Shown in pieces: positions 16,932 through 47,374 of a stretch of 64,000 bases of DNA. Origin of the DNA: Fibrobacteria bacterium (GTDB taxonomy: Bacteria > Fibrobacterota > Fibrobacteria > UBA5070). A program made the translations under genes and the position numbers. Where the stretch lies: the NCBI GenBank assembly GCA_020633825.1, contig JACKCV010000002.1, forward strand, positions 139,553 through 203,552, written 5' to 3'. Positions within the stretch are counted from its first letter, which is position 1. The number at the start of each line of letters is the position of its first letter. A model generated the notes under the pieces. It did not search any database. It saw only the letters and a program-made list of their open reading frames with translations, and was not told the DNA's origin.

Positions 16932-17720
16932 GTGAAAGGACGTTCTGAATGGGTCACGATCCATTGGCAAAGCCCGTTGAAAACCCGCAGTCCGAAGACC
17001 CCCGGGACAACGCCTCCCGAACGGAATCCGACCATGGGGCGGAAGGTTTCCTGGCTCGTGGCGAGGAGGCCTGCGGTCGTGGTGCGTGGGTCGAGGCGCG
17101 GGGGGGGGTGGGGGGGGGGCGCGGGCGCGGAGGGGGGGGGGGGGGGGGCCCGCGACCTGGATCCGTGGGGATGGAAACCCCTCCAGGGGATCGGGATCGC
17201 GCTTTTCTGGTTGGGGAAGAGGGACGATGCCTGGAAGCACCTCGTGGAAGCGTTGCGGAGGGCTCCCGACGAGCCGGACAACGTCGCCAACGTGCTGGAC
17301 GTCGCTCGATCGCTGGGCAGGGAAGCGGAAGCCGAGGCCATCCTCGCCGAACTTCGTCGTTCCCTGCCCGCACCCACCGCGGCTTCGCCTGCCGAGCCCT
17401 TTTGCGTGAAGGGTGAGGAAATGCTCGGTGCCGAGCTCTGGCGGGAGGCCGTGCAACCGTTCCTCCAAGCCATCGACAGCGATCCCGAGCGGTCCCGGGC
17501 CTGGAGCGGGCTGGGCATCGCCTGCTTCCGGGATGGGAAGGCGAAGGCGGCCACGGCCTTCTTCGAAATCGCCCTCCGCCTCGATCCGACGGACCAGGAC
17601 GCCGTCCTCAACTGGGCCGAAGCGTGCGGTCGTCCCGGAGACGACCTCGAATCCTTCCTGGTTTCCGCGGGCGTCTCCCCGGATCTTGCCGCGCGGGCTC
17701 GCGCCGAGGTCTCCGGTTGA
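16932..17720 (+). CDS. TPR-repeat protein (N-terminus uncertain; long poly-G tracts in the 5' part)
   Basis: TPR-like helices 'AWSGLGIACFRDGKAKAATAFFEIALRLDPTDQDAVLNWAEA'; residues before the G tract are low complexity. Confidence 0.5.
   Translation: MKGRSEWVTIHWQSPLKTRSPKTPGTTPPERNPTMGRKVSWLVARRPAVVVRGSRRGGGWGGGAGAEGGGGGARDLDPWGWKPLQGIGIALFWLGKRDDAWKHLVEALRRAPDEPDNVANVLDVARSLGREAEAEAILAELRRSLPAPTAASPAEPFCVKGEEMLGAELWREAVQPFLQAIDSDPERSRAWSGLGIACFRDGKAKAATAFFEIALRLDPTDQDAVLNWAEACGRPGDDLESFLVSAGVSPDLAARARAEVSG
17101..17150. repeat. Homopolymeric G tracts G9-T-G9-C-GCGGGCGCGG-A-G17
   Basis: Read directly from the sequence; within/near the 5' end of the TPR gene. Confidence 0.9.
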
Positions 17721-28673: not shown

Positions 28674-29237
28674 TTACTTCTGCTGGATTCCTTCGAACAC
28701 GATGTCGACGACGATTTCCGGGCCGACGACTCCGTCGGGGATCGACGCGCCGATTCCGAAGTCCTTGCGCTGGATCTTCAGGGTGCCCTCGAGGCCCAGG
28801 CGGGTGTTCTTCCAAGGATCCTCGATCGGCCCGCTGACGGTGAAGGGGATGGACACCGTGCGCTTCACCCCGTGCATGGTCAGGTCGCCGGTCATGGTTC
28901 CCTTCCCGTTCTTTCCAACCACCTTCGTGGAGACGAATTCGATCTGGGGAAACTTCGCCGCGTCGAAGAAATCTTCCGCACGAAGGTGCTCGTCGCGCTT
29001 GCTGTTGCGGGTGTTGATCGAGGCGACCTGGATGGTTGCCTTGGCCTCCAGGGAGGAAAGATTCTTGGGATCCCCGGAGAGGGTGATCTGCATGGAGTCG
29101 AAATTGCCGCGCGTGTTCGAGACCAGGAGGTGCCTGGCCGAAAAATCGACGCTGGAATGCGACGCGTCGAAATTCCAGGTCTGGGCGGTGGTGGCGGTTG
29201 CCAGGAACAGGCCGATGGACAGGATCAAGGATTTCAT
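28674..29237 (-). CDS. YceI family periplasmic protein
   Basis: Signal peptide 'MKSLILSIGLFLATATTAQ'; YceI-like 'WNFDASHSSVDFSARHLLVSNTRGNF'. Start trimmed from ORF 28674..29273. Confidence 0.8.
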   Translation of the reverse strand: MKSLILSIGLFLATATTAQTWNFDASHSSVDFSARHLLVSNTRGNFDSMQITLSGDPKNLSSLEAKATIQVASINTRNSKRDEHLRAEDFFDAAKFPQIEFVSTKVVGKNGKGTMTGDLTMHGVKRTVSIPFTVSGPIEDPWKNTRLGLEGTLKIQRKDFGIGASIPDGVVGPEIVVDIVFEGIQQK

Positions 29238-29306
29238 GGGATGCCCTTTGGTGCGATTGAGAAGCATACGCAATAGCGTGAGATGTAAGCTACGCTCCCT
29301 TGGGGC

Positions 29307-29337
29307 AAAAAACCATGTCTATACATGGATTTTTTTT
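29307..29337. terminator. Bidirectional terminator-like element A6-CCATGTCTATACATGG-T8
   Basis: 6-bp inverted repeat flanked by an A run and a T run, so both strands see a hairpin followed by a U run. Confidence 0.45.
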
Positions 29338-29531
29338 CAAGCGGCCACGGGTGATCCAAATTCCCGCCACCGGCAAGGTTTTCCCCGGAAAGGGGGGGGG
29401 GTAGGAATGCGGTCGGGTTTTGGAGTTGCGAAACCGACGGGGGATCCGCAGTCGGGCGGACCAGTTGAAGATGGAGTTTTCCCAGGCCCTGACGGGGGGC
29501 TTGCGACCCCGAGGCGGAGCGGAGCCAGCCT

Positions 29532-30818
29532 CTAGGGGGAGCTGCGCACCTTCCCGCGATTGTCGAAGACGACATGCCCGGATCCGTCGGAGCTTTTCCA
29601 GGTTCCCTGCGAGGTTCCGCCGGTCATCCTGCCTTGGAAACGGAGGGTGTCGCCGGAAGCGCGGATCACACGCAGTTCGATGGTTCCGTCGGTGAAGGGG
29701 GCGTCCGGTTCCAGCGGATGGTCCGGCTGGGCGTCGAGGAATACTTGACGTCCATCGGCCCCATGCAGCCGATGGCTGGTCAATCTCACCAGCCGGTCCC
29801 CTTGGCGATCCACGGGATCGAGGCTCGTTCGGACGAGCACGGTTTCCAGGAGGGTGTCGCGGGACAGGACGCGCACCTTCCGGAAGATCGCGGTATCCCC
29901 CGGGAAGAATGTGGAATCCTGTCGCGACCCGAACACCGCCTGTTCCACCCATGCGTCGCCGTCCCTTTCCAAGCGGGAGCGGAAACGTCGCGGATAGTTC
30001 CGCGATTCCTCGCGGAAAGCCTGGATCACACTGGATTCGGTCCGGATGCCGCCGGTTCCCAGAACCTGCCTCCGGTCCAGGGTGACCAATCCGGAGTCGG
30101 TCGGATGGGTGTAGATCGGGCCGGATGTGTCGGGCCAGGGGAGGACGGACCACCGGTCGAGGGTGTCGCCGTTTTCCCGAACGACCATGCGACTTCCGCT
30201 CCACAGCCCGTTGTCCGCTCCTGCCGCGTAGGACGAGTCGGGCCCGCCGTCGATGACGAGGTTGGTGGTGGTGACCAATCCTCCGAGGCGTTCCTTCCGG
30301 AGGATCCGGATCGGCAATCGGCTGCCGAGCAACGGGAATCCGGTCAGGGTGGTATCCGCCGGACGGTAGGTTTCGCGGACGCCCACGAGCCCCAAGGGGC
30401 CGGTGGAATCCTTGACCAGGATCCGGACGAGGGAGTCGGCCGGGCGGATCACGAGGGAGTCGTATTTCCTCCCTCCTTCTTCGGGGCATTCCACGGAGAA
30501 GATCACCGCCCAATCCCCGGAAAGGGTGGTGGTGGATTCCGGACGGCACTCCAGGAGCACCCGGCGAGCGGCTGCGGGTGCGGCCGACGCGATGTCCGAG
30601 TTGGTCCCCGAAATGGTGCCGGGAGAGGCGTTTTCCAGGGCGTTCCAGGATCGACTCGAATCGAGGCTTTCCACCAGGGCCGCTCCGAGGGCCTCCAGGC
30701 TGTTGGGGAAATCCTCGCCGCCGGCCGTGCGTTCCCCGGAGGAGCTTCCGCAGGAGGCGAGCCAAGGTGCGAGGGAGAGGCCGAGGGCCAGGAGCAGGAT
30801 TCTGGGGGTTGCCTTCAT
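29532..30818 (-). CDS. Lipoprotein, hypothetical (428 aa)
   Basis: 'MKATPRILLLALGLSLAPWLASC' lipobox; GGGAGG RBS. Start trimmed from ORF 29532..31601. Confidence 0.6.
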   Translation of the reverse strand: MKATPRILLLALGLSLAPWLASCGSSSGERTAGGEDFPNSLEALGAALVESLDSSRSWNALENASPGTISGTNSDIASAAPAAARRVLLECRPESTTTLSGDWAVIFSVECPEEGGRKYDSLVIRPADSLVRILVKDSTGPLGLVGVRETYRPADTTLTGFPLLGSRLPIRILRKERLGGLVTTTNLVIDGGPDSSYAAGADNGLWSGSRMVVRENGDTLDRWSVLPWPDTSGPIYTHPTDSGLVTLDRRQVLGTGGIRTESSVIQAFREESRNYPRRFRSRLERDGDAWVEQAVFGSRQDSTFFPGDTAIFRKVRVLSRDTLLETVLVRTSLDPVDRQGDRLVRLTSHRLHGADGRQVFLDAQPDHPLEPDAPFTDGTIELRVIRASGDTLRFQGRMTGGTSQGTWKSSDGSGHVVFDNRGKVRSSP

Positions 30819-31654
30819 GCTTTCCTCCCGGGATCGTTGGAGCGCGACCGGGGGAAGAACTGCAGGGAGAGCTGCATCACGCGGTCGGGGGATCGGTCCT
30901 CCTTGAGCAGACGGAAGACCTCTTCCCGGAAACTGTCGATCTTGTCGCGGATCTGGCGCTGGGTGGACTCGGAGACCGTGAGAAGGATGGAGGAGATGTG
31001 CCTCTGGTCCGGGCGGAACCTGCCGATCGCTTCCCCGGCATGGTCGATCCAGGTCCGGTTCAGGTTCCTGACGAGTTCCCCGAGGTGGGGGGGCGGTTCG
31101 ACGAAGGTGTCCACGACTTCCCGGCCCCTGTGGGGATCGTCGCGGACGAGGCCCCATTGGACGAGGTCCTGGATCATCTTCGACACCTGGTGGGGAGGCA
31201 GCGGCGGATCGAGGAACGCGCCGACCTCGGCCGGTTCGCTGCGCGAGGGGAGGCATTGGAGGGCCGCTCGCAACAAGGGGTAGCGATAGTCCTGGTAGTA
31301 CCTGGAGTGGGCGGGATTCATGCGGGTGAACGTGGAACGGTTCCTGCGGGTCAGAATTTGTCTGTAGCAGTCCTCGCGCTCCGACAGGGATCGGGTCTGG
31401 CCGAACCGGACCAGGAGACGGAAGTATTCCGCCTCCTTGGGACGCAGCCCGAATCCGGCGATCATCTTCTCCATGGCGACCTGGGAAAGCTTGCGCCTCC
31501 CCTTGATCACGTCCCCGAGGAACCCGGGGTTGGTGAGTCCGGCATCGCGCGCGAAGGCCCTGGTGCTGTACCTGCGGTTCCTCGAGAGCTTCTCCTCCCA
31601 CAGGTGCGCCAGAAGCTTGCGGAAGTCGTCATGTTCGTAGATGTCCAGCGCCAT
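30815..31654 (-). CDS. TIGR02147-like protein (Fibrobacter-type paralogous family, putative HTH)
   Basis: 'YEHDDFRKLLAHLWEEKLSRNRRYSTRAFARDAGLTNPGFLGDVIKGRRKLS...YFRLLVRFGQT' resembles the TIGR02147 N-terminal signature (from memory). Confidence 0.5.
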   Translation of the reverse strand: MALDIYEHDDFRKLLAHLWEEKLSRNRRYSTRAFARDAGLTNPGFLGDVIKGRRKLSQVAMEKMIAGFGLRPKEAEYFRLLVRFGQTRSLSEREDCYRQILTRRNRSTFTRMNPAHSRYYQDYRYPLLRAALQCLPSRSEPAEVGAFLDPPLPPHQVSKMIQDLVQWGLVRDDPHRGREVVDTFVEPPPHLGELVRNLNRTWIDHAGEAIGRFRPDQRHISSILLTVSESTQRQIRDKIDSFREEVFRLLKEDRSPDRVMQLSLQFFPRSRSNDPGRKA

Positions 31655-32006
31655 GTCGACCTCCTTTCGTTCCTGCGGGGTCTCCTGGAGGAGCCCTTCC
31701 CAAGGGAATCTACATCGGAAAGACTGAAAGTGGGGAAAAGTGATTACATAAATCGCGAATGAATGCGTGGTATTTGCGTGAAATCAGGTGTGGTGTTGTG
31801 CAGGTGAAATCAGTAGTTACAATATCTGGTTACATGTCTGCGGGATCTCATCCCGTGGGAATTCGGTGGGGTCCCCCATTGCCTGGAGCCGGAACCCGCT
31901 CGACGGGGGCGGAGCCGGAAGGGGAGCGGAGACTCCTGAAACGCAAAACGGAACGCCCGTGGTCAGCCGAGCGCTCCGTTGCGGTCCACGACGAGGCGAA
32001 CTTTCC

Positions 32007-32669
32007 CTAGTTGGAATCGATCACCCAGTTGATCGAGGCTCCCCAGAGGAAACTGGAGGCCTTCTGGGGGTCGCTGACCGACAGCAGACCATCCGATCCA
32101 TCCGAAGGCGTGCCGATGCGGATGTTGCCCGCCAAGCCGAGGGAGCGGGTGAGGGGTTGGCTGACCCGGACATCGAAACGATCGGAGTACCCGAAACTCA
32201 CAGGGGACCATGACGCGGAAACCACGGTCTGCCGGGGGAGGATCTTGATTCCGATCAGGCTCCCGAGGCCCACCTTCATGTCGAAGGCGGTCTCCCCATC
32301 CGAGTTGGAATTGGAAAGGACCTTCCCGGAATCCATGGCCACGAACACGTCGTATCCGAAGGACAGCCCGAGGCCGGCGACGAGTCGCTCGCTGACAAAG
32401 AGGGTCCAGGGGGTGGCGACGTCGGCGTACAGGAAGATGTTGGAGTCCCACCAGCCGAATCCCAGGTTTCCGTCGAGGCCGGCGAAGTTCCCGATCAGGG
32501 TCTGCTTGCCTTCATCGTAGACGCTCATGGTGAAATCGAGACTCGGGGCGGTGGAATTCCCCCAGTCGGCGTACTTGATCCCGAGTTCCTTGAGGGCGAT
32601 GGGCCCCGATTGGGCGAAGCCGGAGGTGGAGGCGAGGAGGAGCAGGGTGGAAAGGATGCGGGTGTTCAC
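32007..32669 (-). CDS. Outer-membrane beta-barrel-like protein (signal peptide + amphipathic beta strands)
   Basis: 'MNTRILSTLLLLASTSGFAQ' signal; alternating hydrophobic pattern; GTG start overlaps the upstream stop (GTGA). Confidence 0.5.
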   Translation of the reverse strand: MNTRILSTLLLLASTSGFAQSGPIALKELGIKYADWGNSTAPSLDFTMSVYDEGKQTLIGNFAGLDGNLGFGWWDSNIFLYADVATPWTLFVSERLVAGLGLSFGYDVFVAMDSGKVLSNSNSDGETAFDMKVGLGSLIGIKILPRQTVVSASWSPVSFGYSDRFDVRVSQPLTRSLGLAGNIRIGTPSDGSDGLLSVSDPQKASSFLWGASINWVIDSN

Positions 32670-33563
32670 AGGCGCGCTCCCACGGTGAAGAAGGTCTGGG
32701 TCCCGGCATAGTCGTCGTACTTGTCATCGAAGGTGGACGTGAATCCGAAGCCGCCTCGGAGGAAAGCGCGATTGCCGAGATTCAGGGTGGGTTGCACCTC
32801 GAGATTCCAACCGGCGAATCCGATGGTGGCCGAGGTTTCCACGAATGCGAGGGCATGGATCGGCGCCATCAGCCCCAGTCCGAATCCCAGCAGCGTGGGA
32901 TATCCCAGATTCGTGTTGATGTTCACGAGCCAGGGGCTTTCGTCGTCTCCGTAGTCGAGGTTGATGCCGAGGTCGAACCGGACCCGATCCTCCGTCGCAT
33001 CGACGTTGAGGGTCCAGGGATCTCCTGCGTCCGCCGCCTGGTAGGTGACCGTGCGCCCGGTGCGGTTGGCCTCCTGCTGGGCGGCTGCTCCCTGCGCACC
33101 TCCGGCGATCACGGCGGCCAGGTATCCCGAACCTTCGCGATAGTGGAAACCGAAGTTGGATTCCGAGCCCAGCACGCGGACGTAGCCGATCTCGCAGAAG
33201 GTCCGCCCGTAGATCTTCGTCCCGGTCGGGCGTTGCATGATCTTGTAGAAGACGGGGGTGGAGGGCTCCTTCTTGGGTTCGGCCTTGGCGACCACGGGGG
33301 GGAGGTGGAGGGGGCGGCTCGTCCACCGCAGCGGGGGCAAGGGGCGCCTGGTCCGGCTCCGGTGTCTCCGCGGGATCGCTCTCTGTGGTCGCAGGTGGAG
33401 AAGCTGCCTCCGCTTCCGGGGTGGGCGCCTCCTCGGTCACCCCGGTCGGGGAATCCGCGGCGGAGGCGGTTTCCGGGGACGGCGGCTCCGCGATTTCCTG
33501 GGCCATGGGGGAGGCGGCTCCGATCAAGCCGCTGGCAAGACAAAGAGTGAGTGTTTTTCTCAT
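32666..33563 (-). pseudogene. OMP-like paralog split by a +1 frameshift at a C7/G7 homopolymer (signal peptide + P/E/A/T linker in one frame, beta-barrel part in the next)
   Basis: ORFs 32724..33581 and 32666..33340 meet at 'ccacgggggggagg' (~33294-33300); removing one G/C fuses them into one secreted protein. Confidence 0.5.
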
Positions 33564-33688
33564 TCCCAAATAATTGACCACAAAAACATCGTTGTCAATC
33601 AGAAAACTGGAAACCGAAGTTCAAGTTTCCGTCCTCAAGCCTTTGAGCAAGGTGGATTCAGGAAACTCAAAGATTGACCCCGGTTTCC

Positions 33689-34075
33689 TCAGGCCGGAAA
33701 AGCTGCGATGGCATCGATCTCGATGCGGCTCCCGCGTGGGAGCGCGGACACCTGGATCGTGGAACGCGCGGGTGCCGGAGAATTCGAAAAGTGTCGCGCG
33801 TAGACTTCGTTCACCGCGGCGAATTCCGCCAGATCCACCAGGTAGATGGTGGTTCGGACCACGTGGCCGAGGTCGAGGCCGGCTTCGGCCAGGACCGCGC
33901 GAAGATTGGCCAGGACCCTTTCCGCCTGCTCGGCGGCGGAGGTGCCCACGATCTCTCCGGTTCCTGGATCGAGGGGAATCTGGCCACTGAGGAAGAGCCA
34001 GTCTCCCGCTCGAACCGCTTGGCTGTAGGGGCCGATGGGAGCAGGTGCCTGCGGGGAAAGAACGGCTTCAAACAT
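33689..34075 (-). CDS. ridA: RidA/YjgF family reactive-intermediate deaminase
   Basis: 'PAPIGPYSQAVRAGDWLFLSGQIPLDP' and C-terminal 'PRGSRIEIDAIA'. Confidence 0.85.
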   Translation of the reverse strand: MFEAVLSPQAPAPIGPYSQAVRAGDWLFLSGQIPLDPGTGEIVGTSAAEQAERVLANLRAVLAEAGLDLGHVVRTTIYLVDLAEFAAVNEVYARHFSNSPAPARSTIQVSALPRGSRIEIDAIAAFPA

Positions 34076-34126: not shown

Positions 34127-35524
34127 ATGGAACTCCGACGTACCAAGATCCTTGCCACCATCGGTCCTGCCTCCGACTCCCCTGAGATGCTGCGACAGTT
34201 ATTTCAAACGGGTGTCACGGCTTGCCGCCTGAATTTCTCACACGGAACCCATGGGGATCACGCCGCGCGCATCGCCAAGATTCGCCAGGTCGCCGACGAA
34301 ATGGGGATCGCGGTTCCCATCGTGATGGACCTCTGCGGCCCCAAGGTGCGCACCGACACCAAGACCTACGATCTCGTGGTCGGGGACACCTGGCGACTGG
34401 TCCCCATCGAAGGCGACCCCTCCCAGGGGAAGATCGGAATCAGTCATCCGACCCTCGCCAAACTGGTTCCTCCGGGGCAACCCATCGTCCTGGACGATGG
34501 ACATCTCGAGCTGGTCGTCACCGCGATCGAAGGCGACGACATCGTCTGCAAGGTCGTCACCGGTGGGCATCTGAAGTCGCGGAAATCCGTGAACACCCCC
34601 GATTGCGACAACGGGCTCGACGTCCTCTCCGAGAAGGACAAGAAGGACCTCATCTTCGGGCGCGACCAGGGCCTGGACTGGGTCGCCGTCTCCTTCGTCC
34701 GCCACGGCGCCGACATCCAGAGCGTCCGCGAGCATCTGGCCAGCATCGGATGGCCCGACCCCCCCATCATCGCCAAGATCGAAACCCCTCTCGCCGTGCA
34801 GGCCCTCGACGACATCGTCCGTCTTTCCGACGGCATCATGGTGGCGCGCGGCGACCTCGGGATCGAATGCCCCATCGAGAGCGTCCCGATCCTGCAGAAG
34901 CGTGCCGTGCGTCTCGCCCATCGCGCCGCCAAGCTTTGCGTGGTCGCGACCCAGATGCTCGACTCCATGGAGCGCAATCCCCGTCCCACCCGCGCCGAGG
35001 CCTCCGACGTCGCCAACGCCGTGTTCGAAGGAGCCCAGGTGGTGATGCTCTCCGGGGAGACCGCCGGTGGCCAGCACCCTCTCGCCGCCGTCCAGACCAT
35101 GGACCGGATCCTGCGCGGCGCGGAGGCGGTGACAGACACCCCGCCCACCCTTCCCGAGATCTCCAACCAGACCATGGAGATCGTGGCGGGTTCCGTCCGG
35201 CTGTCCGAACACACCAAGGCCCCCTGCATCGCCATTTTCTGTCATACCATGGAGATCGCCCGCCAGATCGCCGGGTTCCATTGCGGCGCCCACGTCATCG
35301 CGGCCTGCTTCGACGAACAGATCTACCGGCAGGTGAGCCTGTTCTACGGGATCATCCCCTTCCGGCTCCCCCGGACGAACAGCATCGACGAGGCCATCAC
35401 GCGGGTGCTCGACGAGATCCAGGAACGCAACCTCGGCGCCGCCGGGGATCGCATCGTGTTCATGTACAGCCAGCCCTTCGGGACGCGGTTGCACAACACG
35501 ATCCGACTCGTGCAGATGCCCTAG
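34127..35524 (+). CDS. pyk: Pyruvate kinase
   Basis: 'MELRRTKILATIGPAS', 'NFSHG', 'IIAKIETPLAV', 'MVARGDLGIE'. Internal start in ORF 33674..35524. Confidence 0.9.
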   Translation: MELRRTKILATIGPASDSPEMLRQLFQTGVTACRLNFSHGTHGDHAARIAKIRQVADEMGIAVPIVMDLCGPKVRTDTKTYDLVVGDTWRLVPIEGDPSQGKIGISHPTLAKLVPPGQPIVLDDGHLELVVTAIEGDDIVCKVVTGGHLKSRKSVNTPDCDNGLDVLSEKDKKDLIFGRDQGLDWVAVSFVRHGADIQSVREHLASIGWPDPPIIAKIETPLAVQALDDIVRLSDGIMVARGDLGIECPIESVPILQKRAVRLAHRAAKLCVVATQMLDSMERNPRPTRAEASDVANAVFEGAQVVMLSGETAGGQHPLAAVQTMDRILRGAEAVTDTPPTLPEISNQTMEIVAGSVRLSEHTKAPCIAIFCHTMEIARQIAGFHCGAHVIAACFDEQIYRQVSLFYGIIPFRLPRTNSIDEAITRVLDEIQERNLGAAGDRIVFMYSQPFGTRLHNTIRLVQMP

Positions 35525-38591: not shown

Positions 38592-38933
38592 GCTTTTCTT
38601 ATGCTTTTCTTAAGTGGGTGGCGGCATACATTATAAACATCATACCGCCAGTTCCCTGCGGGTGGGCGGGTCGGTTCTCCAAAAGAATCGGCCCGCCTTT
38701 TTTTTGCGGAAATTCGACGCTGGTTGTGCTTCGTTCACGGTTTGAGCACAGATTCGTCGTCTGATTCCACTTCGATCCGGGAAACACCCTGCCAGTCCAA
38801 GGACTCGGGTGTAAACTGTCACGGATTGTAGCTGGATCCAGTGAGATCGCTCCCTCTGGTTCCAGGTCCTGGCGGGCCTCTCACACCGTCTGAAAATGGC
38901 CCCAAGGTTTGGTTTCGAACGCTCGAGGTTTTC

Positions 38934-41900
38934 ATGACTCGCATTCGTGGTCTGGGTTTGCTTCTTGGTATTGCCATGGTTCTGGGGATTCCCAGTTCTT
39001 CGATGGCCGGGAAGACGTTGATGTTCCTGATGGACGAGTACATCATTTCCAACACCGACTCGGTGGCGGGAACCCCTCAAGTTTGGATCCAGCACTACGA
39101 TTCGGCCGCCGCCAATGTGGGGTACTACTACGGCGCCAAGGACCTCTTCCTGACCCAGACCGACGCGTACGCCAAACCGATTCCGGTCCACAGTGCCGAG
39201 CCGGACTCCATTCCCTATCCCCGGCAGCTGGAGCGTTGGTGGTATTCGCTGCCGGATTTCAACTCGGCCCAATTCCGCGAGGGCAAGGTCCGTCTGACCA
39301 TGCAGTACATGATGGTCATGCACCGGTGGCTCAATGGAAATCCCAGCCGGATGCAGATCGATACCCAGTCCAATCGCGGCAATTCCACCACCTCGGAACT
39401 GAATACCCCGACCTCTCGCGAGATCGACAACTGCATCGATACCCTCCATGGGGACACCATCTGGATTCGGCATACGGCATCCGACAACGACTCCGTCGGG
39501 ACCATTTCCAACAACCCCAGTGCCGCTTCCATGCGTTGCTACGACCACAATCCCTTCTTCAAGAAGGTTGGAACGGTCCACGTCCTGAATCCCTGGCCGG
39601 GGAAAACCGTTTGGGCGCAGGTGGGGACGGAATGGTACCCGCTCTACGCCGAGCCGGGGCGGGCGGGTTGGGTGACGGCCTCCCTCTGGCAGGATCCGCG
39701 GACCGCGGCACCCTTCGTGGTTCGATTCGCCAATGGGGACCCTCGGGTCTCGTCCGCGGTGACGTACATGGATGCGGGCGGACTTGCCGGAAACGCCTCG
39801 GGCATCGGTTTGGATTTCACGGCCAATGCCGGCAAGAGCGTCTGGGTGATTCCGCCGACCGGGGCGCTTCCGGCTCCCACCGTTTCCACGGTCCAGCCGG
39901 CGAAGAAGCTCACGCTCATGATTCACCGGCCGGCTTGGAACGCCTCCGCGGTCCGTGTGATGTGGAAGGGGATGGATGCCAGGTTCATCGCCTCCAGCAC
40001 CGAGTATTGCGATTGGTTCAGCATGGACTTCTACGAGGGAGCCGTTCCCGAGCAGATCGTTCTGCGCCAACCCTTCGTGGATTCCCTCTTCGGGCAGAAC
40101 GGCTTGGCTGCAGCCCCGGCGCTGATGAGCAACTTCACCGACTGGATCACGGTGAATCCCGTCCTGGCCGCCAGCGGGACCTTGTGGCTCGAGACCGACG
40201 GCAACCGGGCGACCTTCCTCGGGACGGCTCCCGCCACCGCCACCATCTGCAACGAAAAGATCCTGGCCTTTTCGGCCTGGGACTTCTCCAAGATCTACAA
40301 CCCCTACAAGCCCTTCACCGAAGGGCTCGGATACAAGACGGACAACTGCCCGACCTCTGGAGGCAAGGAAACCAAGGGACTGGTCCTTCCCACCCTCAAC
40401 AGCAAGGGGGTTCCCACCTGGAGCGGCAAGGTCGACTGCAACATCGGCAACACCCTCGATGGTCCCCAGTACTGGTTCGACACCTTGGTCCGGGGAGGTG
40501 TTCCGATGAATTCCTTCACCTGCGTGCCGCTGCCCCTGACCCTGGACGCCACCGGATACTACAAGTACTCCAATCCGACGTTCTTTCCCCTGGACACCTT
40601 CACGACGTTGCGTGACGGAACACCCAACCGGTTCAACGACAAGGAATACAACAGCCGGAACAACAACTTCGGCTTCTGCATGCACGCCAAGGCTTCGTTC
40701 GAATACGTTCCGGGCTTGCAGTTCCGGTTCCGCGGGGACGACGACGTCTGGGTCTTCATCGACAAGAAACTCGCCATGGACATCGGCGGGCAGCATGGTC
40801 CCGTGGACGGGGACATCAAGCTCGACAATCTCGGCCTGAGCGAGGGCAAGTCCTACCAGTTCGACATGTTCTACTGCGAACGCCACGAACTCGGCTCGTC
40901 CATCCTGATCCAGACCACCATGAACCTGGTCCCGACCATCGATGTCGAATTCGACAGTTCGGGGGCGAAGCCGGGGGTGTACGACTACATCTCCTGGATC
41001 AAGGAGACGACCAATCGCGCCGACATCTGCCCGGAGCTGGGGGCGGCCACCGCCACCAACAAGCGCAGAGGCCCGGCCATCTACACCCTGGTGAGTCCCG
41101 ACCTCACGGAAATCACCCTGGATTCCCTGGTGGCGACGCAGTACCCGGGATTGGTGATCACCGACCTGAACTCCCACATCGCCATCGACACGGCGGCCCT
41201 GAAGAAATCGGGTCGGCTGGTCACCAGCGGTCTGTACCAGATCCGGATCAACGTCGGATCCGAGGAACGCATCGTTCCATTCACCATTTCCTCCGACGCC
41301 GTGCAGGTGTTCGGGGTGTTGCTGGACCGGAATGGAGACGGTCAGCCCGACAGCGTGGTCCTGAAGACGGACGACCAGGCGGCGTCGTTCCGTGTACCGG
41401 TTTCGGCGACCCTGCGATGGGCCGACCGCTCGGGGGTACCCGATTCGGTTTCGGTCCCCTCCACCAATCTCCACAAATATCCCGGGGATTCCACTCTGAC
41501 CGGTGGCTTCCTCCTCCCGTCCCGAACCAGTTGCCCCCCCGCCGGATGCACCGGGAACATGGGAGCCGTCTACACCGCCAACGGGGGCGACACGGTCTAC
41601 AACCCGATCGTCGAACTCCGGGATGGAATGGCTCCCGTCGCCGACAGTGCTTGGCTGATCTACGACTCCACGGGATTGGGCAAGGATACCTTGTTCGTGA
41701 TCGCCTCCGAAGCCTTGGTCGCCACCATGAAGGCTGCACTTCCCGTGGGCGATTCGGCCTTCGTCCTGACTGGTCGATCGATTGCCGCACGGCCGGTCCC
41801 CGGGACCGCCATCCTGGTCGGGAACCTCCTGAAACTTCCCATCGATCCCGCGACCAATCCCATCCAGCCCGGGGATTCCATCCGCCTGGGTGGATGGTCG

Positions 41901-44900
41901 GGCGACGTGTTCGCCAATTCGCCGCGTGAACTCTCGCGCTGGGTTCCCTTGTACGCCAATCCCGTCGCGAAGTCCTGGATGCTCGATGTCGATGGAAACG
42001 GCGCCCCCGATTCCGTGGGGATCATGGTCCGCGGGACTCTCCGTTCGGCCACCGCCGCGAAGATCCACTGGAAGACCGCCGCAGGTGTGGACACCGTGAT
42101 CCAGATGACCACCCCGACGGGAATCGGGACCGGTCTTAGGCTCCCCCCCGACATTCTCGCCAATGCGACCCTCTGCACCGGATGCTTCATGGAAGTCACC
42201 ATGGGCGGGGTGGACCAGCGGATCGTTCTTCTCGACTCCGTTCCCGCGGTGGCCTTGTCGGCCAAACTCCGCTACGGGGTCAGCAAGGACACCCTGCTGG
42301 TGGAAGTGTCGGAACCCTTCGCGATCGGAAACGCTCCCGGGGAAGGGACGGTGGCGGTGAAGGCGGCAGGGTCTGCCTCCATCCCGGGCACCCTGGTTGC
42401 GGGGCAGGCCACGGCCGGCCCCCGTTGGCTCACCCTGGTGGTGGACACCGGAGCCGTGCAAGCCGATTCCGTGCGTCTGCGCGCCTGGATCCTGGGCAAC
42501 CTGAACGTCCCGGTCGGGGCCGTCTCTCCCTACGTCCCGCTCGTCTACGGTCCCCAGCCCATCTCGGTGGCCTTGTTCGATCGCAACGGGGACGGAAAAG
42601 CCGATTGGGTGCGCTTCCACATGGTCCGCTCCGCGACCGGTGCTCCGAACCCGGCAGGGTTCGCCGTCTCCTGGGCCGGAGCCGTGGCTCGGGCGGCATC
42701 CCTTCCGAAATCCGCCGACGGTAGGACTTGGTCCGGTCCGATCGGCCCTCTTCCCTTCGGCACGGCCTGCGACGCGGGATGCCTGGGATGGGTGACGACC
42801 ATTGCCGGCGATTCCCTCTCGTTCCGATCCGCGGTCGAGGACTCGGTGCCGCCCGTCGCCGTTTCCGCCCGCCTGGGATACGGCTTGGCCGGCGATCCCG
42901 ACACCCTCGACGTCACGGCTTCGGAGCCCCTTCTCGCGGGAGCCGCGGGAGCTTGGGTGGAGACGGGAACCAACCGCTCCCTCGTCCATGGAACCCTGGT
43001 CGCCACCCCCTCCTCCAGCTCGGTGCAGGGGAAGAGGATGGTCCTCCTCGTTCCTTCGGGGACGGTTTCCGACGGCGATTCCCTCTTGCGCCTGGGGGCG
43101 CGAATGGGAGATTCCGGACGCGCATTCGTCGGCGACACCTCCGCCTGGGTACCCCTCGCCTCGTCGGTCAAGGGTGTGGCGCTCCTCCTCGATTCCGACC
43201 AGGATGGTGCACCGGACTCGATCCAGTTCGACGTGCGTGGAAGGCTCGCGGCCGGATCCGCCCGCATCGGCTGGTCCGAGGACGCCTCCGGCAAGGCCGA
43301 CGTCGTGGTGCCTTCCGGAATGGCCGGCTCCTGGGGTGGCCCCCTGGTCAAGGCGCTTCCCGTGGGAGCCACTTCCTGCCAGGTCTCGGCAGGTTGCACG
43401 GTCACGCTCGCCGATGGCACCGTGTTGCCGTTGCTGGACGGGGTTCCTCCCGTCGCGACCAAGGCCCGGTACCGGTTCGGCGCCAATGCCAACGACCCCG
43501 ACACCCTGATCGTGGACGGATCCGAAACCCTCCAACTCCAAGCCGCTGGGAACGCCTGGCTGGATTGGGGGATTCCAGGCACCCGTCGCGAGCCTGTTCC
43601 CAGTCTGCAGGCGGGTTTGGTCAACTCCAACCCCCGCTCCATCGTGGCGCTGGTGCGACTTCCCGAAGGCGTGGAGATCACCGCGACGCATGCCGGATTC
43701 GCCGTGGCTCCCCAACTCCAGGGTTTCGCGGATCTCCTCGGCAATCAGCCTGGCACCTTCAGCCCGATGGTCCCGATCGAGTTCGGTCCTCCGCCGATGA
43801 TCGGTGTCCTCGCCGATCGCAACGGCGACGGCTATCCCGAAGGTGTGAGGTTCACCATCCTGCGCAAGACTCCGGCGCCTCCCGCCGCCGATTCCTTCAC
43901 GGTCCGGTGGAACGACGAGAAGGGAACTCCGCTCACGCGCCGGATCGCCGCCTCCAGCTTGACCTGGGACGGATCGACCAGTTGGGTGGGCGACCTCGCC
44001 ACGCCCTTCCCCTACGGAGCCACCTCCTGCCTCGGATCCTGCGGCGGAGCGGCTCTCGATCCGGCCGGTGCCAGCCTGCCTCTGCGGACCCTGATCGACT
44101 CGATCCCGCCGGTTCCCGTCCAGGCGTCCTACCGGTACAGTCTGCCGGAGGAAGCCCGCGACACCTTGCGGGTCGTCCTGTCGGAGCCATGGGCCAATCC
44201 CGATCCGAACAACTCCCGTTTGACCGATGCCATCGTCGCCTTGGGCGGCGCGGGGAATTCCAACCCTCTCACGTCCGCGCTCTCGTGGTCCCTGGCCGAG
44301 GATGGCAAAACGCTGATCTTCGTCTTGGATCCCATGAAGACGGTCGTGGGTGCCAAGGACAGTGTCCGGCTGGTCGGACTCCCGACCGCTCGCGTCCACG
44401 ACGCCGCTTCGAATGCCCCCGGAGCCGTGGCTCCGTGGTTCCCGATCGACTTCGGACTTCGTCCCCCCTGGCTCTACGTCGGCCCATGGCCTGGATTCAT
44501 CAAGCGGCCCGCCGACGAAGTGTGGTCCACCTATCCGGCCGGGACACCGCCGCTCACCGTGGAATGGCGTCCCGTCAAAGGCTCGTCCAGCAATCCCGTC
44601 CCCGCCGGGGATTGGAAGTTGCTGGCCGGCTCCGGTCCCGATTCCTCCCGCTCCCTGGGCCTTCTCCTGAACTTGAACCGACCCGTGGACGGGCACCTGT
44701 ACATCTACGACAACATCGGCATCCACGTCACCGACATCTCCCTGGACATGATCGCCAAGGCGTGGGCCGATGGTGGTTCCCCGGATGCGAGCCGTCAGGT
44801 GGTGATCCGTTGGAAGGGAATCGACAAGACCGGGGCGCTTTCCTCTCCCGGTGTGTACCTGTGGCGTCTGATCCTTTGGCAGATCCCGGATGATCCCCAT

Positions 44901-44951
44901 GCCGAGAAGGAGATCACCAACACGATCTACACCTTCGGATGGGCTCCTTGA
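38934..44951 (+). CDS. Giant secreted protein (~2005 aa) with fibro-slime/PA14-like domain and five ~207-aa tandem repeats
   Basis: Signal 'MTRIRGLGLLLGIAMVLGIPSSSMA'; 'FRFRGDDDVWVFIDKKLAMDIGGQHG...YQFDMFYCERHELGSSILIQTTM' matches the fibro-slime (TIGR02148-like) signature. Confidence 0.8.
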   Translation: MTRIRGLGLLLGIAMVLGIPSSSMAGKTLMFLMDEYIISNTDSVAGTPQVWIQHYDSAAANVGYYYGAKDLFLTQTDAYAKPIPVHSAEPDSIPYPRQLERWWYSLPDFNSAQFREGKVRLTMQYMMVMHRWLNGNPSRMQIDTQSNRGNSTTSELNTPTSREIDNCIDTLHGDTIWIRHTASDNDSVGTISNNPSAASMRCYDHNPFFKKVGTVHVLNPWPGKTVWAQVGTEWYPLYAEPGRAGWVTASLWQDPRTAAPFVVRFANGDPRVSSAVTYMDAGGLAGNASGIGLDFTANAGKSVWVIPPTGALPAPTVSTVQPAKKLTLMIHRPAWNASAVRVMWKGMDARFIASSTEYCDWFSMDFYEGAVPEQIVLRQPFVDSLFGQNGLAAAPALMSNFTDWITVNPVLAASGTLWLETDGNRATFLGTAPATATICNEKILAFSAWDFSKIYNPYKPFTEGLGYKTDNCPTSGGKETKGLVLPTLNSKGVPTWSGKVDCNIGNTLDGPQYWFDTLVRGGVPMNSFTCVPLPLTLDATGYYKYSNPTFFPLDTFTTLRDGTPNRFNDKEYNSRNNNFGFCMHAKASFEYVPGLQFRFRGDDDVWVFIDKKLAMDIGGQHGPVDGDIKLDNLGLSEGKSYQFDMFYCERHELGSSILIQTTMNLVPTIDVEFDSSGAKPGVYDYISWIKETTNRADICPELGAATATNKRRGPAIYTLVSPDLTEITLDSLVATQYPGLVITDLNSHIAIDTAALKKSGRLVTSGLYQIRINVGSEERIVPFTISSDAVQVFGVLLDRNGDGQPDSVVLKTDDQAASFRVPVSATLRWADRSGVPDSVSVPSTNLHKYPGDSTLTGGFLLPSRTSCPPAGCTGNMGAVYTANGGDTVYNPIVELRDGMAPVADSAWLIYDSTGLGKDTLFVIASEALVATMKAALPVGDSAFVLTGRSIAARPVPGTAILVGNLLKLPIDPATNPIQPGDSIRLGGWSGDVFANSPRELSRWVPLYANPVAKSWMLDVDGNGAPDSVGIMVRGTLRSATAAKIHWKTAAGVDTVIQMTTPTGIGTGLRLPPDILANATLCTGCFMEVTMGGVDQRIVLLDSVPAVALSAKLRYGVSKDTLLVEVSEPFAIGNAPGEGTVAVKAAGSASIPGTLVAGQATAGPRWLTLVVDTGAVQADSVRLRAWILGNLNVPVGAVSPYVPLVYGPQPISVALFDRNGDGKADWVRFHMVRSATGAPNPAGFAVSWAGAVARAASLPKSADGRTWSGPIGPLPFGTACDAGCLGWVTTIAGDSLSFRSAVEDSVPPVAVSARLGYGLAGDPDTLDVTASEPLLAGAAGAWVETGTNRSLVHGTLVATPSSSSVQGKRMVLLVPSGTVSDGDSLLRLGARMGDSGRAFVGDTSAWVPLASSVKGVALLLDSDQDGAPDSIQFDVRGRLAAGSARIGWSEDASGKADVVVPSGMAGSWGGPLVKALPVGATSCQVSAGCTVTLADGTVLPLLDGVPPVATKARYRFGANANDPDTLIVDGSETLQLQAAGNAWLDWGIPGTRREPVPSLQAGLVNSNPRSIVALVRLPEGVEITATHAGFAVAPQLQGFADLLGNQPGTFSPMVPIEFGPPPMIGVLADRNGDGYPEGVRFTILRKTPAPPAADSFTVRWNDEKGTPLTRRIAASSLTWDGSTSWVGDLATPFPYGATSCLGSCGGAALDPAGASLPLRTLIDSIPPVPVQASYRYSLPEEARDTLRVVLSEPWANPDPNNSRLTDAIVALGGAGNSNPLTSALSWSLAEDGKTLIFVLDPMKTVVGAKDSVRLVGLPTARVHDAASNAPGAVAPWFPIDFGLRPPWLYVGPWPGFIKRPADEVWSTYPAGTPPLTVEWRPVKGSSSNPVPAGDWKLLAGSGPDSSRSLGLLLNLNRPVDGHLYIYDNIGIHVTDISLDMIAKAWADGGSPDASRQVVIRWKGIDKTGALSSPGVYLWRLILWQIPDDPHAEKEITNTIYTFGWAP
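41300..44400 (+). repeat. Five diverged protein-level tandem repeats (~620 nt each) inside the giant gene
   Basis: Each unit has a 'D(R/V/S)(N/D)GDGxPD' motif and '(D/E)S(V/I)PPVAVSARLxYG...DTLxVxxSEP'. Anchors at ~41322, 41985, 42580, 43192, 43812. Confidence 0.6.
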
Positions 44952-46846: not shown

Positions 46847-47374
46847 TCAGCGACGCATTTGCACGGGGAAGCCGTCGAGTCGGAAGGATTTCAGATCGAC
46901 CCGGGCGGCATCGGCCGCTTCCCGACTGGGGAAGTTGCCCCAGCGGATCTTGTGCATTCCGTTTTCCTCGACCAGGACCAAGGTGCCGGGGCCGAGGATC
47001 TTCTCCAACCGGCCTTTCTCCTTGGTGGCCGCCTCGAGGTTGGAGAGGGCCGCGATCTGGATTTTCCAGACCGGTGCGAGGTCGGGGGGCGTCTCCGAGG
47101 CCACGGCGGCGACGGGGGCGGGCTCCACGGGGATCTCCGGCGAGACGGGTGCGACGGGGGCGGCGGCCACGGGTGGCGGCGGCGGGGGGGCGGCGGAGTT
47201 GGGTGCCGGTGCGGGTTCCACGGCGGGCGATTGGGGAATCTGCGTCGCCGGAGCGGGTAGCGAAGGGCTCGCGGGGGGCGTCGCCTTGGAACCTCCGGGC
47301 AGGGGGATCCAGGGGCGTGAATCGAGTTCCCCACGCAAAACGGTCGCGTCACCGGCGAGAAGGGACAAAATCAT
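46847..47374 (-). CDS. SPOR-domain protein (TM anchor, Pro-rich linker, C-terminal SPOR)
   Basis: C-terminus 'VWKIQIAALSNLEAATKEKGRLEKILG...KIRWGNFPSREAADAARVDLK'; start may lie a few codons further upstream. Confidence 0.7.
   Translation of the reverse strand: MILSLLAGDATVLRGELDSRPWIPLPGGSKATPPASPSLPAPATQIPQSPAVEPAPAPNSAAPPPPPPVAAAPVAPVSPEIPVEPAPVAAVASETPPDLAPVWKIQIAALSNLEAATKEKGRLEKILGPGTLVLVEENGMHKIRWGNFPSREAADAARVDLKSFRLDGFPVQMRR

Follow-up and report, generated by a model that had tools for sequence, protein, structure and literature searches.

The locus analyzed here comes closest to three kinds of described systems: poly-G/C contingency loci, +1 translational frameshifting sites, and small outer-membrane β-barrels. 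For contingency loci, the PhasomeIt screen counts poly-G/C tracts from a cut-off length of 7 nt upward. Its authors caution that tracts of cut-off length may be too stable to switch efficiently and point to C. jejuni NCTC 11168, in which the tracts with documented variability are at least 8 nt long (PMC6321876). For +1 frameshifting, CC[C/U]-[C/U] sequences are especially prone to shift; in E. coli, shifts at the second codon position reach frequencies of up to ~1% (PMC4519876). Here we describe a two-gene locus of a Fibrobacteria genome in which the upstream gene (gene A) is disrupted by a frameshift at a C7 tract and the downstream gene (gene B) is intact. The locus lies within a 64-kb window, which is the whole stretch of DNA that was analyzed, and comprises the following features, given in window coordinates:

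31850..33688, no strand: the A-B cassette, with approximate extent and boundaries, absent in the nearest sister genome
33570..33598, minus strand: promoter-like site, TTGACA-17 nt-AATTAT, with 10 of 12 consensus matches (consensus match only; 1 site vs 0.3 expected in shuffles)
33303..33563, minus strand: 5′ segment of gene A in the ATG frame, 87 codons, with the signal peptide MRKTLTLCLASGLIGAASPMA followed by QE, then a Pro/Glu/Ala/Thr-rich linker
33296..33302, minus strand: frameshift site, a coding-strand C7 made up of two Pro codons (CCC) and an additional C
32666..33295, minus strand: 3′ segment of gene A in the +1 frame, conserved body, 209 codons plus stop
32724..33563, minus strand: C7 product as sequenced, 279 aa, signal peptide and linker followed by 190 out-of-frame, Arg-rich residues
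32677..32681, minus strand: GGGAG, Shine-Dalgarno-like by sequence reading, with a presumed function, 7 nt 5′ of the gene B GTG
32666..32669, minus strand: GTGA, in which the stop of gene A (TGA) overlaps the start of gene B (GTG)
32007..32669, minus strand: gene B (H6686_05475), intact, 220 aa, with the signal peptide MNTRILSTLLLLASTSGFA followed by QS and a β-rich body
31947..31980, minus strand: terminator-like hairpin with a T-rich tail, 13 pairs of which 8 are G-C, 27 nt past the gene B stop (pattern match only)

A frameshift at the C7 tract of gene A

The original prediction had described two minus-strand open reading frames, 32724..33581 and 32666..33340, which would be joined if one C were removed from a tract at ~33294–33300. 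An ORF check recovered both frames, and the sole long homopolymer between them is a coding-strand C7, read as G7 on the plus strand, at 33296–33302, 2 nt away from the position initially given. Gene A begins with the ATG at 33563 on the minus strand, and its linker closes with PPPPPPP. In the context CCC-CCC-CGU, the codon that follows is read as Arg in frame 0, whereas the +1 frame yields Val (GUG). Computation of the alleles demonstrated that the length of the tract sets the reading frame of gene A, as it does in a contingency locus: C6 produces a single ORF, as had been predicted, of 298 aa; C9 likewise produces a single ORF (299 aa), and C5 and C8 give products of ~150 aa. Translation of the C7 allele terminates 55 nt ahead of the gene B start. 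At the junction, the in-frame gene A product would read ...PPPPPPPVVAKAEPK and the out-of-frame C7 product would read ...PPPPPPPRGRQGR. The NCBI annotation at this position, H6686_05480, is a hypothetical protein of 224 aa that spans 32666..33340 from a TTG start.

Codon-usage log-odds place the switch of frame at the C7 tract. From the tract on, scores are +35.9, +50.9, and +27.6 in the body frame and −19.4, −85.1, and −40.3 in the ATG frame; 5′ of the tract, the ATG frame scores 5.4 against −45.9 for the body frame, then −13.8 against −24.3. This model was used instead of GC3 frame plots, which were dropped as confounded because the third positions of the +1 frame in the linker are the first positions of Pro, Glu, and Ala codons, which start with G or C, and because antisense and sense frames tie. 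A six-frame coding scan revealed no other convincing frameshift in the 64-kb window. Within the gene A body, no further degenerative lesions were found: all invariant columns are kept, codon scores are positive, and the frame is open to the terminal G-x-R-L. Since the body bears no further damage, the lesion appears to be recent, and gene A, if it is a pseudogene, would be a very recent one.

Two exported-protein families and their genomic setting

The gene A family was found by an exhaustive HMMER search of 1.84 billion proteins, which identified seven distant homologs (E-values from 2e-6 to 3e-4), mostly from Myxococcota. A profile search added only one relative, word-index homology searches with both gene products returned self-matches only, and no close relative of gene A, either intact or split, turned up when GTDB genomes and JGI metagenomes were scanned with its protein. 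In all seven homologs the signal peptide and the body are encoded in a single ORF, and in one of them (P0009) a Pro-rich linker of similar length follows the signal peptide, as in gene A. Relative to these intact homologs, the reading frame of gene A is disrupted, as in a pseudogene. The idea that relatives might also be split is contradicted by all seven, and because they carry signal peptide and body unsplit, one with the Pro-rich linker too, we consider gene A to be truly broken. The single-base frameshift that the original prediction saw splitting an exported barrel-like gene is thus borne out by the allele arithmetic, the codon log-odds, and the unsplit relatives.

The body of gene A contains the motifs GFHYxEG, ANRTGRTVTY, and NLGNR and ends with G-A-R-L; all members of the family terminate in an invariant G-x-R/K-L, and in every member a C-terminal aromatic β-signal residue is absent. 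The AlphaFold model of the body (pLDDT 76.3, pTM 0.64) has ~10 strands and a helix at residues 73–94. Nearly all Foldseek matches to this model are outer-membrane barrels, with TM-scores of only 0.3–0.46. The Pfam family OMP_b-brl (PF13505) is matched by one of the eight family members, at 18.6–18.9 bits, which is below the gathering cut-off of 28.7. The suggested likeness to outer-membrane proteins is weakly supported: the barrel matches and the ~10 strands speak for it, and the Pfam scores and low TM-scores speak against it. The gene A protein may reside in the outer membrane.

Genes A and B had been proposed to be tandem paralogs. This relationship did not hold up: a BLASTP comparison of A and B gave E = 0.42, hhalign profile-profile probabilities were 0.4%, 0.4%, and 1.2%, and only the signal peptides align. 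An HMM built from five syntenic B proteins gives gene B a score of 24.3 bits (E 1.2e-6), whereas 1000 shuffles scored no higher than 10.9 bits; its score for A, 7.8 bits, is within the range of shuffled sequences. The structure model of gene B has a pLDDT of 34. The overlap of the gene A stop with the gene B start, in contrast, is present as described, and the identical 4-nt overlap occurs in every relative locus (L007, L009, L010/L011, L012/L013, and L014–L016), so that the A-B pair with overlapping start and stop is found in all six lineages examined. By these comparisons, A and B appear to be two different families that are conserved partners and not duplicates, and the GTGA overlap supports translational coupling of gene B to gene A.

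Upstream of gene A, 6 nt separate the promoter-like site from the ATG, and a transcript initiated from this site would thus be almost leaderless. The pair is flanked by RidA and a TIGR02147-family gene, which in the sister MAG are adjacent, 200 nt apart. The pair is absent from all 13 Fibrobacterota loci fetched. A search around the cassette for flanking direct or inverted repeats or marks of mobile elements found none of note, and a mobile-element origin of the insertion was rejected for lack of notable flanking direct or inverted repeats. In terms of gene content and homology, the A-B pair appears to be an accessory insertion in a Fibrobacteria genome, with its relatives in Myxococcota.

Probable origin and consequences of the extra C

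Two sequencing runs yield assemblies with the C7 tract. In SRR12358676, C7 lies on an 11-kb Logan contig that matches the window at 100% identity over 8.8 kb, and in SRR14234111 it lies within the first k-mer of a Logan contig. The C10 tract at 29392–29401 is the same in all three runs, and every other homopolymer compared between runs agrees exactly. No tract allele other than C7 was found; C7 is the only complete allele in the assemblies of the two runs, and an exact look-up in ~15 billion public proteins returned no record of the products of the C5–C9 alleles from either possible start. A literature search with the run and assembly accessions returned no paper. Logan contigs of two other runs stop within 10 nt of the tract, yet cross C10 unbroken. 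Their ends lie at 1546, 1550, and 1556 (L001 coordinates, in which the tract occupies 1554–1560) and differ between runs, whereas a C6/C7 bubble in a de Bruijn graph would predict a left contig end at 1559 and a right contig start at 1555. Because of this misfit and of the difference from run to run, the contig ends are at most a possible sign of tract polymorphism. Of all 31-mers in the examined region, 28778–33560, the one richest in G lies at this site (68% G, local GC 0.80–0.82), and the balance leans toward a drop-out of coverage or quality there, although the ends could reflect tract heterogeneity.

Runs of G or C of at least 7 nt occur 20 times in the window, compared with 15.4 ± 3.8 expected from a second-order Markov model (the window is 65% GC). 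Longer runs (G9, G10, and G17) are found elsewhere in the window; an exact look-up of the protein encoded next to the G17 cluster returned no record. CCC accounts for 51% of Pro codons, and the gene A tract consists of two CCC codons that close the polyproline stretch. An in-frame C7 at 47184–47190 encodes PPPPPP in the linker of a SPOR-domain protein. Further C7 tracts of the window are located at 34759–34765 and 31087–31093. In the P0009 gene, the Pro-rich linker is written in mixed codons without a homopolymer, the other relatives have no linker, and no conserved repeat is found at the same place in gene A homologs. Thus, of the suggestion that the tract forms a contingency locus, the frame-setting role of the tract stands, but the tract is neither a compositional outlier nor conserved among homologs. 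A G7/C7 run in a GC-rich genome is not by itself evidence of a contingency locus.

We favor, with a probability of about 60%, a recent slippage frameshift that left the accessory gene A in a null or OFF state. The locus would be a self-contained two-gene operon, with promoter, gene A, gene B, and terminator, for two exported proteins whose uncharacterized families appear always to co-occur. The gene A protein would start with a signal peptide, followed by a Pro-rich linker that is optional in the family and by a barrel-like body of ~10 strands that includes a conserved helix. The gain of one C in the CCC-CCC run of the polyproline linker, most likely by replication slippage, would have changed C6 to C7. 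Ribosomes starting at the ATG would then make the signal peptide, the linker, and 190 out-of-frame residues, and since the barrel body is left without an export signal of its own, gene A is presumably null in the sequenced genotype. Gene B would retain its Shine-Dalgarno-like site and lose its coupling to the gene A stop codon. The site of the extra C could slip back, but nothing indicates that the tract evolved as an on/off switch.

The same sequence would be expected of a hypermutable C7/G7 tract at which slipped-strand mispairing toggles gene A between ON (C6 or C9) and OFF (C7 or C8), perhaps together with gene B through the lost coupling, the sequenced population being OFF. The protein concerned is exported and probably surface-located, and the tract falls within its coding frame and decides that frame by its length; at 7 nt it reaches the PhasomeIt cut-off (PMC6321876); the undamaged gene A body and the intact gene B would look alike in a reversible OFF state; and the contigs of two independent runs stop at the tract while C10 is crossed. 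We nevertheless regard such a locus as unlikely. Runs of this length are not enriched, codon choice in the polyproline stretch accounts for the tract, the only relative with the linker lacks it, and C7 is the sole complete allele assembled, the products of other alleles being off record. The tract is also of the minimum length, at which the stability warning applies and which falls short of the at least 8 nt documented in NCTC 11168 (PMC6321876), and the contig ends fall on the most G-rich 31-mer and do not fit a length-polymorphism bubble. A broader proposal, in which the C7 at the end of the seven prolines is a working switch for the barrel protein, operated by reversible C6/C7 slippage or by +1 slippage of stalled ribosomes on CCC-CGU and also tuning gene B through the overlap, seems to us similarly doubtful. 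That the true genome is C6, with an intact 298-aa gene and an error in the assembly or consensus, is very unlikely. Homopolymers are a classic place for consensus indels, the short-read contigs of two runs do not cross the site, and the 629-kb source contig may point to a long-read assembly. Against this simple error, C7 appears in the k-mer assemblies of both SRR12358676 and SRR14234111, the other homopolymers compared, including C10, are identical across runs, the 64 kb contain no other evident frameshift, and the C6 product is absent from public protein records.

The extra C might also be genuine and bypassed in translation, with some ribosomes slipping +1 on CCC-C after seven prolines to yield the full-length exported protein. 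Polyproline stalling could prolong the ribosome pause, the CCC-CGU of gene A is the slippery sequence of the model mRNA AUG-CCC-CGU-U (Arg in frame 0, Val in +1), and a +1 shift yields precisely the protein type of the family. Although the slippery P-site codon of a programmed +1 site is in place, stimulatory elements and conservation in homologs are lacking: the upstream sequence is CCUCC-like and offers no Shine-Dalgarno-like stimulator, the downstream fold reaches only −10.7 kcal/mol, and none of the homologs has the frameshift. In addition, the 7242 codons of intact genes counted here contain the CCC-C motif 46 times, CGT makes up 14% of Arg codons and is thus no rare codon, and non-programmed shifts are of low efficiency (PMC4519876), which leaves recoding only a slight chance. 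The least credible alternative requires no fusion and takes the annotated 224-aa TTG ORF, or a shorter internal start, to be the gene and the signal-peptide ORF to be unrelated. NCBI does annotate 32666..33340 as the protein H6686_05480, but 5′ of the tract the body frame is Arg-rich, has no hydrophobic segment, and has a poor codon score; the TTG is not preceded by a Shine-Dalgarno-like site; both the signal peptide and the promoter-like site are found farther upstream, in the other frame; and every relative joins an N-terminal signal peptide to the body.

Comparison with described systems

On the slippage reading, the event is an ordinary one: a metagenome-assembled genome has an accessory gene with a single-base frameshift, annotated as a truncated hypothetical protein, and H6686_05480 should be re-annotated as a frameshifted 298-aa exported protein. 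The two genes encode exported proteins that form a small pair not described before and lack a Pfam family; the pair is found mostly in Myxococcota, and its stop and start always overlap. A mixed tract length, if true, would place the locus among the few documented examples of SSR phase variation beyond host-associated pathogens.

The poly-G/C contingency loci of Campylobacter, Neisseria, and Haemophilus (PMC6321876) resemble gene A in that a tract in the 5′ part of an exported-protein gene sets the frame. In contrast to those loci, the tract of gene A belongs to a 65% GC genome with tracts at the chance rate, has the minimum length, is a by-product of Pro codons, and is unconserved, and no length variation was seen. 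The similarity to non-programmed +1 shifting of tRNA-Pro on CCC-C (PMC4519876, PMC7577736) and to the programmed +1 shift of prfB consists in the CCC-CGU, which is identical to that of the model mRNA, and in the restoration of a family-type protein by the +1 shift. Gene A differs from these +1 frameshift systems in that it has no stimulator, its motif is common in the genome, its homologs are unshifted, and the expected efficiency is at most ~1%. Small outer-membrane β-barrels (PF13505; FapF, 5o65; Omp33, 6gie; KdgM, 4fqe; NanC, 2wjq) resemble the gene A protein, which has a signal peptide and for which the model suggests an even number (~10) of antiparallel strands that may form a barrel. The gene A protein is set apart from them by Pfam scores below the gathering cut-off, TM-scores of 0.3–0.46, the G-x-R/K-L end, and membership in an uncharacterized family. 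Like gene A, FapF combines a linker and a helix with the barrel.

A single-base frameshift in gene A

The ATG at 33563 on the minus strand opens a typical signal peptide (MRKTLTLCLASGLIGAASPMAQE...), followed by an 87-codon stretch rich in Pro, Glu, Ala and Thr that ends in PPPPPPP. The final two Pro codons and one extra C form a C7 tract at 33296–33302 (G7 on the plus strand), the only run of seven between this segment and the ORF of the gene A body. The encoded product depends on tract length.

Predicted products of gene A by tract length
C7 (as sequenced): 279 aa; the ATG frame reads on through 190 Arg-rich codons and closes at 32724
C6 or C9: one continuous ORF (298 or 299 aa) that closes at 32666
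C5 or C8: about 150 aa

The original prediction held that the parts fuse only if one C is removed; C6 does give one ORF, but so does C9. The predicted location of the single-base frameshift was right, frame arithmetic and codon usage being in agreement. In a log-odds model of codon usage, built on 7242 codons from confident genes of the window, the change of frame maps to the tract. From there on, the body frame scored +35.9, +50.9 and +27.6 and the ATG frame −19.4, −85.1 and −40.3; on the upstream side the ATG frame led, with 5.4 versus −45.9 and then −13.8 versus −24.3. In 60-nt windows, the two frames cross over between 33350 and 33290. A stop upstream of 33436 closes the body frame, which lacks any hydrophobic segment ahead of the tract, so the body has no export signal of its own. 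As predicted, the downstream gene B starts by a GTGA overlap (32666–32669) between the stop of A and its own GTG, with GGGAG 7 nt ahead of that start.

The A family and its conserved partner

Seven relatives of the A body (215–310 aa, 27–44% identical where they match, E 2e-6 to 3e-4) emerged when 1.84 billion representative proteins were searched exhaustively with HMMER, and a profile search added an eighth; the named ones come from Kofleriaceae, Myxococcales, Myxococcota and Bradymonadaceae MAGs. In each, one ORF encodes an N-terminal signal peptide joined directly to the body, and one of them, P0009 (310 aa), also has a Pro-rich linker of similar length to that of the window gene. The fused 298-aa architecture is therefore the family norm, against which the window gene is frameshifted; the original prediction had allowed for relatives that are split as well, and all proved unsplit. 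The family alignment extends to an invariant C-terminal G-x-R/K-L, and the window body retains every invariant column. Gene A of the window is a broken member of a rare exported, barrel-like protein family.

The AlphaFold2 model of protein A, built from an 8-sequence alignment (pLDDT 76.3, pTM 0.64), has about ten strands and a long helix (residues 73–94 of the 224-aa ORF) that spans the most conserved motif, LAAVIAGGAQGAAAQQEANRTGRTVTY. In a Foldseek comparison with the PDB, nearly all matches were outer-membrane barrels, including FapF, Omp33, KdgM, NanC, PcoB and a designed 10-strand barrel, but at E values of 1e-3 or weaker and TM scores of 0.3–0.46. The Pfam OMP_b-brl score (18.6–18.9 bits) lies below the cut-off of 28.7, and the family C-terminus is non-aromatic. 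The modeled fold makes the predicted outer-membrane-barrel-like character of protein A plausible, although short of established. A single-sequence model of protein B reached a pLDDT of 34. Neither family has a Pfam model, and no solved structure related to A or B is detectable by sequence.

The description of A and B as tandem paralogs was rejected: BLASTP between them gave E = 0.42, and profile-profile comparisons gave probabilities of 0.4%, 0.4% and 1.2%, with the alignment confined to the signal peptides.

The pair was surveyed in all lineages with fetched DNA (the window and loci L007, L009, L010/L011, L012/L013 and L014–L016). In every one, the next gene after A encodes a signal-peptide protein of 200–251 aa, and its start overlaps the A stop by 4 nt (the L009 partner gene is truncated at the contig end); the genes flanking the pair differ among lineages. 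The partner proteins are mutually homologous (targeted phmmer E 1e-7 to 0.05), and an HMM of the five other partners matched window B at 24.3 bits (E 1.2e-6), against 10.9 bits for the best of 1000 composition-matched shuffles and 7.8 bits for A proteins. Judged by gene order and homology, B is a conserved partner of A, the two belonging to different families. The pair (32007–33563 in the window) occurs mainly in Myxococcota MAGs; in L010, two small lipoprotein-like genes flank it.

Genomic setting and origin of the A-B cassette

NCBI annotates both ORFs (H6686_05480 and H6686_05475) on a 629-kb contig of the "Fibrobacteria bacterium" MAG; the G+C content of the window is 65%. Pyruvate kinase and OmpA/thrombospondin-repeat protein genes lie on the strand opposite to A and B.

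Features of the A-B locus
33689..34075, minus strand: RidA, first in the minus-strand order RidA, A, B, TIGR02147-family gene
33598..33570, minus strand: promoter-like site TTGACA-17-AATTAT, a pattern match ahead of A
31980..31947, minus strand: terminator-like hairpin, a pattern match after B
30815..31654, minus strand: TIGR02147-family gene, of a Fibrobacter-type family (E 7.5e-54)
~31850–33688, no strand assigned: A-B cassette with its own promoter-like site and terminator-like hairpin, absent from L017, the nearest sister Fibrobacteria MAG available

Only 6 nt separate the end of the −10-like hexamer from the gene A ATG, and no Shine-Dalgarno sequence lies at a usable distance from that ATG (33563–33598, minus strand); the gene A mRNA may be leaderless or nearly so. 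A 428-aa gene at 29532–30818 (minus strand), which has no Pfam match, shows a 4-nt overlap with the TIGR02147-family stop, an arrangement kept in the sister MAG (425 aa, L017 5837..7114). The top coding score in the window belongs to a 2039-aa ORF at 38832–44951 (plus strand).

In L017, whose TIGR02147-family protein is 78% identical to that of the window, 200 nt (4801–5000) separate RidA from the TIGR02147-family gene, with A-B absent between them; the proximal upstream region of the latter gene is alignable with that of the window. Neither A nor B was present in any of the 13 Fibrobacterota loci fetched (L017 and 12 others), which points to a lineage-specific insertion here or a loss in the sister. 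No repeats flank the cassette. An insertion may have arisen by transfer from a Myxococcota-like donor. Neutral decay is plausible in an accessory, perhaps transferred gene.

Mutation, artefact, switching or recoding

We consider a recent slippage insertion, which would leave gene A null in an accessory operon, the likeliest account (probability about 0.6). That C7 is a simple consensus error, as the original prediction had contemplated, is unlikely. An 11.2-kb Logan contig of run SRR12358676 agrees with the window at 100% identity across 8.8 kb, a stretch that takes in the gene A C7, two further 7-nt runs and a C10; a contig of the separate run SRR14234111 starts with ACCTCCCCCCCGTGG, again C7. 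The C10 (29392–29401) is the same in all three runs, and a six-frame coding scan of the 64 kb turned up no second convincing frameshift.

Contigs do end at the tract: in SRR14234115 one stops 8 nt ahead of it and another starts inside it (CCCCCGTGG), and the SRR14234111 contig starts 4 nt ahead. The clustering of these three ends within 10 nt of the tract (L003 1–5, L004 1–15 and L006 1546; window 33296–33310), where local contigs of these runs measure 1.5–4.5 kb, is not due to chance. The contigs ending here pass the C10 unchanged. However, the end positions vary from run to run and fail to match a simple C6/C7 bubble. The site holds the most G-rich 31-mer (68% G) within 28778–33560, with a local GC of 0.80–0.82. 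Loss of quality or coverage explains the ends no less well than tract heterogeneity. No C5, C6, C8 or C9 product, from either start, was found among about 15 billion public proteins. At window 34855, in the pyruvate kinase gene, SRR12358676 and SRR14234115 contigs both stop at the same base, which suggests a graph branch (a shared conserved k-mer or strain variant) over random coverage loss.

The proposed contingency-locus behaviour, with C7 as a reversible switch of gene A, draws on a tract that sets the frame in a gene for an exported protein, on an undamaged body and on the unexplained contig breaks, yet it seems doubtful. G/C runs of at least 7 are about as frequent as expected (20 versus 15.4 ± 3.8 under a second-order Markov model), and far longer ones are present elsewhere in the window. 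CCC accounts for 51% of Pro codons, so C-runs arise naturally in polyproline stretches; indeed, a C7 at 47184–47190 (G7 on the plus strand; gene on the minus strand, about 46847–47350) encodes an in-frame PPPPPP in the Pro-rich linker of a protein carrying a SPOR domain at its C-terminus (Pfam E 4.5e-10), making such runs routine in this genome. The linker-bearing P0009 has no homopolymer. Length 7 is also the bottom of the screening range for phase variation: documented variability in C. jejuni NCTC 11168 concerns tracts of at least 8, and the PhasomeIt authors warn that cut-off-length tracts may switch inefficiently (PMC6321876).

Elsewhere, at 17100–17148 (plus strand), G9, one T, G10 and, after twelve more bases, G17 lie within an ORF with C-terminal TPR repeats (16932..17720), which remains open through all three runs and there encodes RGGGWGGGAGAEGGGGGARD. 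G17 is a far stronger candidate than the gene A G7, whether for hypermutability or for an uncertain length in the assembly.

A programmed +1 ribosomal shift on CCC-C, which would restore protein A, is also unlikely. Were peptidyl-tRNA-Pro to slip by +1 at the site (CCC-CCC-CGU-GGU), the next codons read would be GUG-GUC (Val-Val) and the product exactly a protein of the family type; seven consecutive prolines could add a ribosome pause. However, CCC-C turns up 46 times across 7242 codons of intact genes, CGT is not rare, a stimulatory element is absent at the site and no homologue is shifted. Some leaky expression at a low level is possible. The slippery sequence is identical to that of the model mRNA AUG-CCC-CGU-U, which is read as Arg in frame 0 and as Val in frame +1; in E. 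coli, shifts of up to about 1% have been reported at the second codon (PMC4519876).
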